Assembly (NCBI GenBank): GCA_000004985.1
Contig: GG738926.1
DNA: 64,000 bases
Strand: one strand, 5' to 3'
Source of the DNA: Naegleria gruberi
Lineage: Eukaryota
The notes under the pieces were generated by a model that ran no database searches, had not been told where the DNA came from, and saw nothing but the letters and a program-made list of their open reading frames with translations. Made by a program: the position numbers and the translations under genes. Position 1 is the stretch's first letter, and every line of letters starts with the position of its first letter. This document shows positions 3,203 to 11,243 of this stretch, one piece after another.

Positions 3203-3935
3203 CCTACCTGGTTTGCTATGAACCTCGCAAGCGAATACTTAATTTCCCTCAATATTACTCTCAGTATCATACATAAGGATTCACCCATCTTATGTGTGAT
3301 ATTGCTGTGATACGGATTGGAAAATAAGGTTTCTATTGCGAATTGAATTCAATCATTGTTTTAATAATTAAATAAAATTCTTTGTAAATAACATAATTAA
3401 ATTTAATACTCGGATCAGCATTGAAATTAATCATTTAAAAATTCAATAATTCAATGATGTTAAGGGTGGAACAAGTTTTATTATTACATTCTTTGCACGT
3501 TTCTTCAAAAAAGGATGATGAAAATCCACCTTTGAACAACGTGATTTCCAACCTCACGTTTCATCCATTTCAATCCTGCACCTAAAGTGATGATTTCAAA
3601 GCTTTAAAGAAGGTTACGTTCCTTCATCAAAGCCTAAAAAAACAACACAAAAACAATTCGAAAAGTTCTTTCAATACAATAATAACGGCCGTTATTAGGA
3701 GGCTCCTATTGATTCAGGAAATTCATTTTGTTATATAGATAATATATATTAGTGTGAATTGAAAACGGACGTTAATCATTTTACATTCATCATCACATTT
3801 GGGAAAATTAAATTATAAAAGTTGATAAATCACTTCCGATTATTCATCATCATCATCAGTGTAAATAGTAACACCACCAAATAATTGTAGTATATAATAG
3901 TAGTATTTAAAATAGTATATTAATAATAATTGAAA

Positions 3936-5141
3936 ATGCTCAATACAACACTTCATAAACAGAAAAAGAAGGTGAGCAAGAAATCTCAACCTAAAATTCA
4001 CCAAATTACCATCTCTAAATATATCAATGATAAATATGCTCTAAAATCTGTTGAATTGGGAACTGGTTCCTTTGGGGATGTTTATTTGGGAGAGGAAACA
4101 GATCCGATCACTAGAAAGAAGAGAGATGTGGCTATTAAGAGAGTGAGATTGGAAAGATATGGTCCTGAACATTTCAAATATTTGGTGGCAGAAATTGAAA
4201 TTATGGCTGGTTGTCAAAATGAGTTTGTCATGTCACTTGTTGATAAAATTGAAATTCCAAGAAAGGAACTCTATTTGGTAATGGACTTGTGTGAGGCAAA
4301 TTTTAAATATTACATGAATAATGCACGAAAGAGGAGGCAAGATAAGAGATTGCCTTTACTTTCAGAGAAGGAAATTCAATATTGGATAAAACAAATTAGT
4401 AGTGGATTGGGATATTTACATTTGGAAAAGAAGATTTGCCATCGTGATATTAAACCACATAATTTGCTACTCAAGAAAAAGGGTCACGAAGTTGCTTTTG
4501 ATTTCTATGCCAAGATTGGAAATTATGATGAATATACCATTCTGATTAGTGACTTTGGTCTTTCCAAAGTGTTGGATAGCAATCCAATTGCAGAGACAAT
4601 TCTTGGAACTCAATGTTATAGATCTCCACAGCTGGCACTCTTCCAACCATACTCATTCGATGCAGATATATTTGCTTTGGGTGTGGTGCTGTTTGAAATG
4701 ATTGCTGGTTACTGCTTGTTTGGTGCTCAAGTTACTAATCCAAAGCCAAAATATGGTGAAATTATTAGTACTTTAACAGAGAATATTGACTGGAGCTTTT
4801 TATCTGATGCACTTGATATTTCTCCAGAGCTGGTAGATCTTCTCTCTGGCATGTTACAATTTGAAGTGGAGAAACGTTTGAATATTGAACAAATTTTGCA
4901 ACATCCCTTCCTTAATATGGATTTTTCAGAAAGTGAAGTTACTACTACCAGGTCATTCCATCTGAAACTATACCAACTGTATCATATATTGAAATTCCTC
5001 TTACTACCACTACTACAACTGACAATGATTCTCCAAACAACTCAACTCAACAACAGCAACAAGTTCCTGTACAAATTATACTACCAACCAGCGAGGAAGA
5101 AAAAGAAAAAGAATTGCCAGTTAACGAACCAATCCAAGTAA
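3936..5141 (+). CDS. Serine/threonine protein kinase
   Basis: Motifs seen: Gly-loop LGTGSFGDVYLG, VAIK lysine, HRDIKPHNLLL catalytic loop, DFGLSK, and GTxxYRSPQ in the activation segment. The true ATG is at 3936; the TTG at 3930 is an ORF-caller artefact. The ORF stops at 5141, but frame +2 is open from 4937 into ORF 5114..5611 (see findings). Confidence 0.8.
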   Translation: MLNTTLHKQKKKVSKKSQPKIHQITISKYINDKYALKSVELGTGSFGDVYLGEETDPITRKKRDVAIKRVRLERYGPEHFKYLVAEIEIMAGCQNEFVMSLVDKIEIPRKELYLVMDLCEANFKYYMNNARKRRQDKRLPLLSEKEIQYWIKQISSGLGYLHLEKKICHRDIKPHNLLLKKKGHEVAFDFYAKIGNYDEYTILISDFGLSKVLDSNPIAETILGTQCYRSPQLALFQPYSFDADIFALGVVLFEMIAGYCLFGAQVTNPKPKYGEIISTLTENIDWSFLSDALDISPELVDLLSGMLQFEVEKRLNIEQILQHPFLNMDFSESEVTTTRSFHLKLYQLYHILKFLLLPLLQLTMILQTTQLNNSNKFLYKLYYQPARKKKKKNCQLTNQSK

Positions 5142-7913: not shown

Positions 7914-10900
7914 ATGAAACTATTAAACTTGTTTATTTTTCTAATATTATTTCCCACACTAATTTATTCATCATCCGCAGAGGATACGAGAAATTATTCC
8001 AGCTCATCCATTAATAATTCGAATAATTTTCCTTCATCCTCTTTGAAAACTAATGTTGTTAACTATTCGAAAGGAATTAATTTACAAATAATTTATTACA
8101 TTAATTCTGATGATGTCAAATATCAGAATACAACTTGTCAAGACGAAAGTCATCCATGTTCAGATATGAACCAAGTGATCTTGGCAGCAAATACGAAACT
8201 ATTCGAAATATTTCATGAAAATGATCAAACTAAATTAGATTCTTTTACAATGATTGTCATGATTGATTCGAAATTGGAATGTAACAAACTGCTCTTTGAT
8301 TTTTCAAATTATACGAAACGATTCGAAATGAGGTGGAAAGGATACGAAAATGGTTTATTCTCTGCTTGTCTAAATAGTTTAGATGAAAATTCCATTTTAG
8401 ATGCTTTCACTGTTGAGAATGGAAAGATTTCAGGCGAATTGAATAATAGATTAGGTATCAAGAATTTGGAAATTCGAAACTGTCACGATGGTGGAATGAT
8501 TTACTTTTATACTAAAATAGAAAATTTGCTGATTGCTGACAGTTTCTTTCATGAAGATACTGAAATAACTGAGATTACAAATGTACGAGTGGAAAATACG
8601 CAATTGGATGATTTTGAAATTGTTTCGAATGGAGCAAGTGTTGAAATTTCAAATTCTAAAATTCAAGGAATTGTTGATTTGCAGAATTTTAAATCATTTT
8701 CTATTCGAAACTCAATTTGGAAAAATAACCGAGTTCATGAGGATTATTCATCAACATTTAATTTAGGACAAGATGTTTCATTTGATAATGTAACAACTAA
8801 TGCTAAAATTGTGTTTATTTCAATCAAGTCAATCAAGATGAATGGGCTAATTGTACACAATTATGGAAACGGATATTTCTTGTATCAAATGATACGAGTT
8901 TCTCATTTCTATCTAAGCAACAGTTCGTTTGTGGGAAATTTCGTGCTCAACAACTATTTACTCTCCTTGCAAATAGTTGAATCTATACAAATTGAAAATT
9001 GTACAGTTTCTAATAATGTTGGAGGTTTCATCATGGTAACAGATGCTACTTTGATAATGGGACAGGTGAATATACGAATTAGTAAGAGTGTATTTCAATC
9101 CAACGAGATGCTGTCAGATATTGCTCTAATTGACATTGTGGATCAAACAAGAGAGATGTATTTTATCACAGTTGACCATTGTAAATTTTTGGAAAATACA
9201 GGAGAATCCACTTTACACATTGATGGAGGACTTGCCCAAATTTCCAATTCAGACTTCTACTTTAATATTGCAAACGAACATGGTACTGCATACTTGAATT
9301 GCTATGTTACAATTTCAAACTCTAAATTCATCGCTAATCAAGCCAAGTTAGGAGGAGCCATTTACATTGGTCCTGCTGGAAATATTGATGCATCTCAAAC
9401 AATTGATTTTACTTGTGATAATAATTGGGCAACCTACGCTGGAGGATGCATTTATTCAGAAAATTTGGATTTTTCAAAATTGAAACGCATGAATGGAACT
9501 AATATTGCTAAATATTATGGAAATGATGTGGCCACACCTATTGTGAGTCTGGATGCTACATTTGATGAGGTAGATTCTAATGGAAATATTGAGGTTTACC
9601 CAGGTCAAGCATTCCAAATTAATTTTTTCCCAAGAGACAAGTTCAATCAGAGCACCTCTTATTTATTGAATCAATATTTGTTTATCAATTCAGAAAAAGG
9701 TCATTTTACAATCTCTCAGAATTTTTTAGATGGAATCCATTCTATTCCAGTAGTTTTGCAAATATTTCCAATTGACGACTACAACCCATCATTGCCACCA
9801 CTTGTAATATTGATTTCTTCAAAAATTGAAATCAAAATTCCTGTAAATATTCTCCCATGTCCAGATAGTTCTTTCCTGAAATTATCTCAAAATGGACATT
9901 ACTGTGAACAAATTCCATTAGCAGCGATTCTGTCATCTGTAATTTTGGGAATTATTTTGATAACCATTATATTGGCAGCATTAATAGTGATAGCTAGGAA
10001 ATTATTGAAATTGAGAAAACAGGAACGTGCTGAAAAGAAAATGGAGCTATTGTTCAAAGATAAGGAATTTATATTCGAAACAGAACAAGCACCTCTATTA
10101 CTTTCTAATACCATCAACAGTAGTGATTCAGGTGAAAGTAGATCAATAATTGGAAACAGGCAACAATACATCATTCCAATTTCTGAAATTAATATTTTGA
10201 AAAGAATAGGAGAAGGTGGAATGGGTGTCGTATATCACGCGAAGTGGAATCGAACTGATGTTGCCATCAAACAATTGAAAACAGATTCCAATGATGAAGA
10301 ATTCGAAAATGAAGCAATTTTAATGAGCTCACTTCGACATCCATGTATTGTGAGCTGTTTTGGAGTTTCTCTGACAACCAATGGAAAATATATGATTGTA
10401 GAATATTTGGAAAATGGAAGTCTAGAAAAGGCAATTTATAATTCAAAGATGGGAAGAGCAATTTTGAGATTTGAAACCAAGTTGAAAATATTAACTGATG
10501 TTGCCAAAGGATTAGTTTATTTACATTCAATCAAACCTCATAGAATTATTCATAGGTATGTTTACTACTTTTATTGGAATAGATATTAATTATGGAATAG
10601 AGATTTGAAACCAGGAAATTTATTACTCGATAAGAATATGAATGCAAAAGTTGGGGATTTTGGATTGAGCAAAATTGTTTCGAATAATTCTGCAACAATG
10701 ACAGCAAATGTAGGAACTTTACTTTACATGGTAAGTCTAGATAATTTCACAAATTGAATTAAATTGTTATCAATTTAGGCGCCAGTAAGTAATTTCGAAA
10801 TTTAATTTATTAAAATTTCGAATATTTTACAATAGGAATTACTTTCGAATGATCACAAAGGTCAAAGTACAAAAGTGGACGTTTATTCATTTGGAATTAT

Positions 10901-11243
10901 TATGTGGGAAATTTTATTCGAAGAATCACCATTTTCAAATGAAATTGATGGTTTCACTAATGTTTTCCAAATATTGAAGAAAGTTACAAAAGGTCATCGA
11001 CCACCCTTACTATTCGAAACTAGTGCTTTATTGGAGGCAGATAGAAATCAGAAAGTTGATGAATGGATTGATCATAACTTTACAAAGAAACAAATCGAAA
11101 CTATTGGAAAGGAAAATATTTCTAAATTATATGAATCATATATAGAAATTATGGAACACTGTTGGAATCATGACGCATCTAAAAGACCTGAATTTATTGA
11201 AATTACAGATCAATTAGAAACCTTGCAATCGAACTTTGCTTAA
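7914..11243 (+). CDS. Receptor-like protein kinase: signal peptide, β-helix-like (pectin-lyase-fold-like) ectodomain, one TM helix, TKL-type kinase. Four exons
   Basis: Exons: 7914..10555, 10601..10730, 10779..10784 (6-nt microexon GCGCCA = Ala-Pro), 10836..11243. Introns: GTATGT..AATAG (45 nt), GTAAGT..TTTAG (48 nt), GTAAGT..AATAG (51 nt). Signal peptide [24 protein letters not shown] helix [26 protein letters not shown] (~9918..9990). Kinase motifs [19 protein letters not shown]|DLKPGN (split by intron 1), DFGLSK, YM-AP-ELL, DVYSFG. Confidence 0.75.

Follow-up and report, generated by a model that had tools for sequence, protein, structure and literature searches.

A predicted six-nucleotide coding exon completing the APE motif of a receptor-like kinase gene in Naegleria gruberi

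Internal coding microexons of 1-15 nucleotides (nt) have been described in land plants, where they often code for part of a conserved motif, are conserved among homologues, and are routinely missed by annotation, which results in truncated gene models (Yu et al. 2022, PMC8831610). The introns flanking plant microexons of no more than 15 nt are removed consecutively, more often with the downstream intron first, and an adjacent pair of 5-nt and 12-nt microexons in rice has been validated by reverse transcription PCR (RT-PCR) (PMC8831610). Here we report a candidate of this kind in a 64-kb stretch of Naegleria gruberi DNA (contig GG738926.1 of assembly GCA_000004985.1, ~33% GC; hereafter the window). 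The six bases GCGCCA at positions 10779..10784 of the + strand are very probably a genuine internal coding exon, which would supply the Ala-Pro of the APE motif in a receptor-like kinase gene.

The Naegleria exon resembles the plant microexons in its size, its canonical GT-AG introns, the conserved motif that it encodes, its conservation among homologues, its omission from the public annotation, and the existence of an adjacent pair of tiny exons, found here in a paralogue. It differs from them in its host, a heterolobosean amoeboflagellate (Discoba), in flanking introns of only 40-51 nt, and in being known from comparative sequence rather than from RNA-seq or RT-PCR. It is bounded by complete GT-AG introns on both sides, yields the best-scoring product that keeps the frame, and recurs at the same position in homologous genes; judged by these features, the predicted exon is a further case of ultra-short coding microexons. 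Such exons of six bases or less are documented mostly in animals and plants, and we know of nothing comparable described for Naegleria. The literature that we searched contained no paper linking Naegleria with microexons, and the two papers with both words were unrelated.

Animal neuronal microexons (3-27 nt; dependent on SRRM4 and PRP-40/PRPF40A) present the splicing machinery with a steric problem (PMC8378409, PMC11648925). They share with the Naegleria exon a tiny size, an in-frame length that is usually a multiple of three, and an effect on only a few residues. They are, however, tissue-regulated alternative exons that lie in genes with long introns, rely on dedicated enhancer proteins and alter modulatory surfaces, whereas the Naegleria exon is probably constitutive, lies between very short introns and encodes residues of a catalytic core. 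The 6-nt exon of chicken cardiac troponin T and the 9-nt mini-exon of potato invertase are constitutive or nearly so and encode conserved residues. Unlike the Naegleria exon, they belong to animals and plants, have long flanking introns, and have known enhancer requirements. In stwintrons (the nested twin introns of fungi) and in recursive splicing, close or overlapping splice signals are used in succession. A stwintron or recursive site leaves no exon bases in the mRNA, whereas six coding bases must stay in the Naegleria transcript. We considered this class for the locus and set it aside, as both introns carry their own complete splice sites and the six bases are needed for APE.

The gene around the microexon encodes a type I transmembrane receptor-like (TKL-type) protein kinase, and its predicted structure is as follows.

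Exon 1, 7914..10555, + strand: 2642 nt, through the kinase N-lobe to ...IIH plus the AG that opens the Arg codon of HRD
Intron 1, 10556..10600, + strand: 45 nt, GTATGT...AATAG, phase 2, splits HR^D, contains an in-frame stop
Exon 2, 10601..10730, + strand: 130 nt, catalytic loop, DFG and activation segment, ends GGA ACT TTA CTT TAC ATG (GTLLYM)
Intron 2, 10731..10778, + strand: 48 nt, 21% GC, GTAAGT (10731..10736)...TTTAG (10774..10778), phase 0, between Met and Ala
Microexon, 10779..10784, + strand: 6 nt, GCGCCA, Ala-Pro of the APE motif (kinase subdomain VIII)
Intron 3, 10785..10835, + strand: 51 nt, 16% GC, GTAAGT (10785..10790)...AATAG (10831..10835), phase 0, between Pro and Glu
Last exon, 10836..11243, + strand: 408 nt, starts GAA TTA CTT TCG AAT GAT CAC AAA GGT (ELLSNDHKG), ends SNFA plus TAA (11241..11243), kinase C-lobe
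Predicted inclusion junctions, 10730^10779 and 10784^10836: ...TTTACATGGCGCCAGAATTACTTTCG, core string CATGGCGCCAGAATT
Predicted skipping junction, 10730^10836: ...TTTACATG^GAATTACTTTCG
Predicted mRNA strings: inclusion TTTACTTTACATGGCGCCAGAATTACTTTCGAATG; skipping TTTACTTTACATGGAATTACTTTCGAATG; read-through TTTACATGGTAAGTCTAG

Exon 1 lies in an open reading frame (ORF) at 7914..10589 with its ATG at 7914, and codes for a hydrophobic N-terminus resembling a signal peptide, an ectodomain of ~690 amino acids (aa), one transmembrane helix, a juxtamembrane region and the kinase N-lobe. No Pfam domain was found in the ectodomain, even at E = 0.5. Removal of intron 1 gives IIHRDLKPGN, and the public N. 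gruberi model P0001 splices this intron identically. All three introns are AT-rich (16-22% GC) and each contains an in-frame stop. The first-pass annotation, which had proposed the 6-nt exon from the letters of the window, placed the end of exon 2 at ...LLYM^GTAAGT and the start of the following large exon at AATAG^ELLSNDHKG; direct reading agrees on both (10730/10731 and 10836), and the intervening acceptor, GCGCCA and GTAAGT donor are present to the base at 10774..10790. Translation likewise reproduces its contrast between inclusion and skipping of the six bases, which give GTLLYMAPELL (YM-AP-ELL) and GTLLYMELL (YMELL), respectively. The product with the microexon is a complete protein of 1061 aa. 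The gene matches the kinase models of Pfam (Pkinase 177.3 bits, gathering cut-off 31.7; PK_Tyr_Ser-Thr 170.2 bits, cut-off 23.1). VAIK, HRDLKPGN and DFG are intact in the spliced product, the subdomain XI Arg lies in ...SKRPEF, and only inclusion of the microexon yields APE.

We listed all GT..AG paths that remove one or two introns in the region 10700-10860 and scored the products that kept an open frame against a hidden Markov model (HMM) of seven homologues from which the window gene was excluded. Altogether there were 61 paths, ten of which kept an open frame. The microexon path had the best score (192.5 bits) and was the only one of the 61 to encode APE; another donor/acceptor pair that still encodes APE, an outcome that the first-pass annotation had named as incompatible with its proposal, was thus not found. 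The second-best path (177.6 bits) removes a single 105-nt intron (10731..10835), which has the expected GT...AG ends and keeps the frame. If that path were the true one, the kinase would lack Ala-Pro (YMELL) and the internal AG-GCGCCA-GTAAGT would be a coincidence or a dead relic. Several results speak against the single intron. When the 105-nt stretch was shuffled 300,000 times, a single shuffle produced the arrangement AG^GCNCCN^GT with 30 nt or more in each intron; an analytic estimate puts its occurrence by chance at ~3e-6. These shuffles are conservative in that they retain the microexon's own G and C letters. The string AGGCNCCNGTAAGT occurs once in both strands of the window, with 0 expected from 100 shuffles. 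In the Pfam models, which are independent of the homologue HMM, the Pkinase score is 182.0 bits with Ala-Pro and 164.8 without it (a gain of 17.2 bits), and the PK_Tyr_Ser-Thr score is 176.0 and 165.4, respectively. The introns of the window gene and of the compared relatives are 40-68 nt long, except for one of 123 nt in N. fowleri, and a heuristic scan of the window returned candidate introns mostly of 40-70 nt with GTAAGT donors; lengths of 48 and 51 nt are therefore typical, whereas 105 nt is about twice the usual size.

The homologues point in the same direction. The activation segment ends with the APE motif (Hanks and Hunter's subdomain VIII), whose Glu pairs with the Arg of subdomain XI and whose Ala-Pro sets the geometry of the P+1 loop. 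Since all other catalytic motifs of the predicted product are intact, an active kinase is expected, in which a deletion of two residues would be anomalous. Among 167 retrieved homologues, 152 fit the pattern G[TS]xx-aromatic-x-XX-E, with AP in 128, SP in 13 and other pairs in the rest, and the form with the two residues deleted was found in none of the 167. In several Naegleria-type homologues, APE is replaced by ARE, ANE, SNE or PNE (L005:3764-3769, L004:3953-3958, L062:2456-2461, L003:1769-1774), which indicates that the Pro is variable in this kinase family and the two-residue spacing is invariant. A scan of JGI metagenome contigs added 52 loci; nearly all of them are distant kinases that run uninterrupted through APE and are thus uninformative for this family. 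Taken with the same arrangement in a paralogue, described below, we give the 105-nt intron a very small probability and regard the six bases as very probably coding.

The paralogue, L006, lies on ENA contig k127_300871 (ERZ929261); Logan has a copy of this contig as L007. The paralogue is related to the window gene over the whole length, with 34% identity in the ectodomain and 73% and 45% in the kinase. Its sequence in the region runs ...GGA ACT CTA TTA T^GTAAGT...^ATATT^GTAAGT...^GCACCT^GTAAGT...AATAG^GAGTTACTT, so that three introns fall within 12 coding bases (3230-3374):

First intron, 3230..3274: 45 nt, GTAAGT...GTAAAG
5-nt exon, 3275..3279: ATATT
Second intron, 3280..3319: 40 nt, GTAAGT...TAAAAG
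6-nt exon, 3320..3325: GCACCT
Third intron, 3326..3374: 49 nt, GTAAGT...TAATAG, followed by GAG TTA CTT TCT AAT CAT CAT AGA GGT
Predicted mRNA across the tandem 5-nt and 6-nt exons: GGAACTCTATTATATATTGCACCTGAGTTACTTTCT

The frame of L006 closes only with both tiny exons, as T+ATATT+GCACCT gives TAT ATT GCA CCT (Y-I-A-P). There were 1253 paths with up to three introns, of which 93 preserved the ORF, and the best of them uses both tiny exons to give GTLLYIAPELLSNHHRG (181.6 bits versus 174.7 for the next). The 6-nt exons of the two genes differ solely at both third codon positions (GCG/GCA and CCA/CCT), with Ala-Pro kept, and the surrounding introns are no more similar between the window and L006 than shuffled sequences. 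Because the exon changes are confined to wobble positions and the introns around them are dissimilar, the comparison carries the signature of a coding element that would have been held by selection since an old duplication. A paralogue with 34-73% protein identity thus has the same arrangement, which speaks against a single 105-nt intron. The first-pass annotation had suggested comparing orthologues for a retained Ala-Pro; in this paralogue it is kept, as GCACCT at the same place.

Related genes were compared for introns at three positions, namely inside the Tyr codon (T^AT), before Ala-Pro (M^A) and after Ala-Pro (P^E):

Window (N. gruberi): T^AT none; M^A 48 nt; P^E 51 nt
L008 (second strain): T^AT none; M^A 46 nt; P^E 51 nt
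L006 (paralogue): T^AT 45 nt; M^A 40 nt; P^E 49 nt
L061 (N. lovaniensis P0020): T^AT none; M^A 61 nt; P^E none
L001 (metagenome): T^AT none; M^A none; P^E 46 nt
L003 (metagenome): T^AT none; M^A none; P^E 43 nt
L005 (N. fowleri P0017): T^AT none; M^A none; P^E 123 nt
L062 (N. lovaniensis P0026): T^AT none; M^A none; P^E 68 nt
L004 (N. lovaniensis P0021): none at T^AT, M^A or P^E
L002 (P0015): none at T^AT, M^A or P^E

The only intron of this region in L061 interrupts TAT ATG^GTAGGT...AAAAG^GCA CCT GAA CTA TTG, and the annotated protein reads YMAPELLD. The residues before the P^E introns are YIAP (L001), YMPN (L003), YMAR (L005) and YMSN (L062). Each of the lone M^A and P^E introns is needed for the ORF of its own gene. 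Since both positions occur singly in relatives, the microexon can be described as the overlap of two independently attested intron positions; most plausibly it exists because this lineage combines the two positions, which other Naegleria members of the gene family have singly. This makes the locus a readable case of microexon origin. An ancestor with both positions followed by loss, and separate gains, are both compatible with the ten genes compared. The idea that the upstream intron arose as a duplicate of the downstream one was rejected for want of evidence: introns aligned no better with each other than shuffles did, and 72 of 500 shuffles matched or beat the alignment of window introns 2 and 3. 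In N. fowleri (L005:567-4300) and N. lovaniensis (L061:1-2875), the homologous kinase is annotated separately, immediately downstream of a gene that matches Chlam_PMP faintly; each pair is probably one receptor-kinase gene that was split into two models.

L008 and L006 come from one sample (ENA ERZ929261, run ERR1078381, project PRJEB11402), which is filed as 'metagenome'. L008 is the same gene as that of the window, with 98.6% DNA identity over 2 kb. Between the two copies, the 144 intronic nt show 7 differences, among them a 2-nt indel, and the 1858 exonic nt show 21 (Fisher p = 0.003). Four of the intronic differences, among them the indel, are in intron 2, which is 46 nt long in L008, and two are in intron 3. 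Neither the microexon nor any of the six splice sites has changed, and exon 2 is without differences. Among the exonic changes, 17 are synonymous and four non-synonymous, and the last exon has three synonymous changes and one Val-to-Ile replacement. As the introns have diverged more than the exons and the exonic changes are mostly synonymous, the whole spliced frame, with the downstream exon included, is under purifying selection. The ERZ929261 sample is also usable as a second N. gruberi-like strain for comparisons.

The public model offers a further reading of the locus. P0001, an N. gruberi 'predicted protein' of 820 aa, is 100% identical to the window product from ORF residue 113 on, and its 3' end is a read-through of the donor at 10731 to a TGA inside intron 2. 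If this NCBI/JGI model were right, the protein would end there and the downstream C-lobe would be the decaying remnant of a truncated gene or pseudogene. The downstream frame is, however, open over 135 codons and has all the expected C-lobe motifs (DVYSFG, CWxxDxxxRP), its few changes in L008 are synonymous or conservative, and the paralogue L006 has the same downstream exon, and a kinase that broke off within the activation segment would not function. The purifying selection on the whole frame therefore rules out the truncated gene, to which we assign a negligible probability. P0001 instead goes wrong precisely at the microexon and lacks the 135 codons of the C-lobe, in keeping with the remark of the first-pass annotation that predictors usually miss such exons. 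P0001 starts at an internal Met (MIVMIDSK..., ORF residue 113). The ORF extends 112 codons upstream of this start, to the ATG at 7914 (window 7914-8249), and begins with a signal-peptide-like segment; P0001 is probably truncated at its 5' end as well. The reference protein thus lacks the signal peptide region and the whole kinase C-lobe, and correction of the model turns it into a type I receptor kinase whose catalytic core is intact. Any Naegleria kinome inventory built on the public models will misclassify this kinase.

A real microexon could also be used alternatively, so that a +AP isoform (active) and an in-frame delta-AP isoform (probably crippled or a pseudokinase) are made in regulated proportions, like animal neuronal microexons. 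The length of the exon, a multiple of three, would allow skipping without a frameshift or a signal for nonsense-mediated decay, and N. gruberi transcriptomes do contain cases of exon skipping (Grau-Bove et al. 2018, PMC6142364; RNA-seq project PRJEB23822). In the same study, intron retention outnumbered exon skipping in every species studied except one (PMC6142364). The sequence evidence gives no sign of regulation, and the delta-AP form occurs in no homologue. In addition, the 5-nt exon of L006 is obligatory for its frame, so splicing is evidently efficient at including exons of this kind. Regulated use is therefore improbable in our estimate, and inclusion of the microexon is probably constitutive.

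For the favoured structure, in which the six bases are an exon, the following mechanism can be proposed. Two U2-type GT-AG introns that lie six bases apart would be removed, leaving TAC ATG^GCG CCA^GAA TTA (Y-M-A-P-E). With introns this short, splice sites would presumably be paired across the intron (intron definition). Pairing of the U1 small nuclear RNA with about -3 to +6 of the donor would cover half of the 6-nt exon, and the upstream acceptor AG is only six bases away; a 3'-splice-site complex and the U1 small nuclear ribonucleoprotein would find no room side by side on six bases, so the introns would most likely be removed one after the other. Either order would give the same mRNA, as each first step would leave the sites of the other intron intact beside an exon of normal size: with intron 3 out first, the remaining acceptor would be an ordinary TTTAG^GCGCCAGAATTAC..., and with intron 2 out first, the remaining donor would be an ordinary ...CATGGCGCCA^GTAAGT. 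All five donors that adjoin tiny exons, two in the window and three in L006, are a perfect GTAAGT, which fits a need for strong sites; they are not special, because donors elsewhere in the window, too, are most often GTAAGT.

RNA structure was considered as a means of presenting the microexon. Base pairing is predicted between the end of exon 2 (UUACUUUACAUGG) and the microexon together with its donor (GCGCCAGUAAGUAA), with z = -2.6 for window 10716-10792 and z = -2.2 for L008:1477-1551. We did not take this as a mechanism, as nothing similar is seen in L006 (z = +0.6); the predicted pairing may reflect only the complementarity of ACUUAC-like exon sequence to GUAAGU.

Altogether, the proposal of a 6-nt exon that restores APE is supported by the only path that encodes this motif, which is also the best-scoring one, by a Pkinase gain of 17 bits, by the paralogue, by the lone intron positions, and by the divergence of L008. 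Several points weigh against it. The evidence is comparative, and protein-database queries of 1061, 310 and 180 aa returned no transcript-derived protein that spans the junctions, only P0001 and P0135, a genomic ORF of the last exon; proteins of a length unlike that of the query may have escaped these searches. The sole public model, P0001, is without the microexon. As skipping keeps the frame, it could occur to some extent without penalty. Both intron definition and the order in which the introns are removed are inferred from other organisms, and the organism of L006 and L008 from the 98.6% DNA identity, in a sample labelled as a metagenome.

A broader proposition can be considered possible, at somewhat less than an even chance. 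Under it, the Naegleria spliceosome would constitutively join 5-nt and 6-nt exons across a 40-nt intron, as in L006, by intron definition alone; the Y-M-A-P-E spot would be an ancient, differentially lost intron cluster or a hotspot of recurrent gain; and a noticeable number of Naegleria gene models would be cut short by unannotated ultra-short exons of this kind. The locus presents a conserved microexon, together with an adjacent 5-nt and 6-nt pair, in a deeply diverging protist with introns of 40-50 nt. If the structure is true, very short exons are manageable where exon definition cannot apply, and the locus is a compact natural substrate for testing how. A crude scan for further microexons in the window gave only spurious matches, inside long uninterrupted ORFs; because it demanded 60 or more open codons on either side, the microexon locus itself would escape it.

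Two minor observations concern other parts of the window. Intron 3 contains, at window 10795-10825, two copies of a palindrome-bearing motif, AATTTCGAA(A/T)AT, with a predicted internal hairpin, and intron b of L006 has a TTCGAA motif as well. At window 3930-5141 (+ strand) there is a second, unrelated protein kinase ORF (CHRDIKPHN, DFG), which has a long insert between the catalytic loop and DFG and carries YRSPQ in the place of APE.

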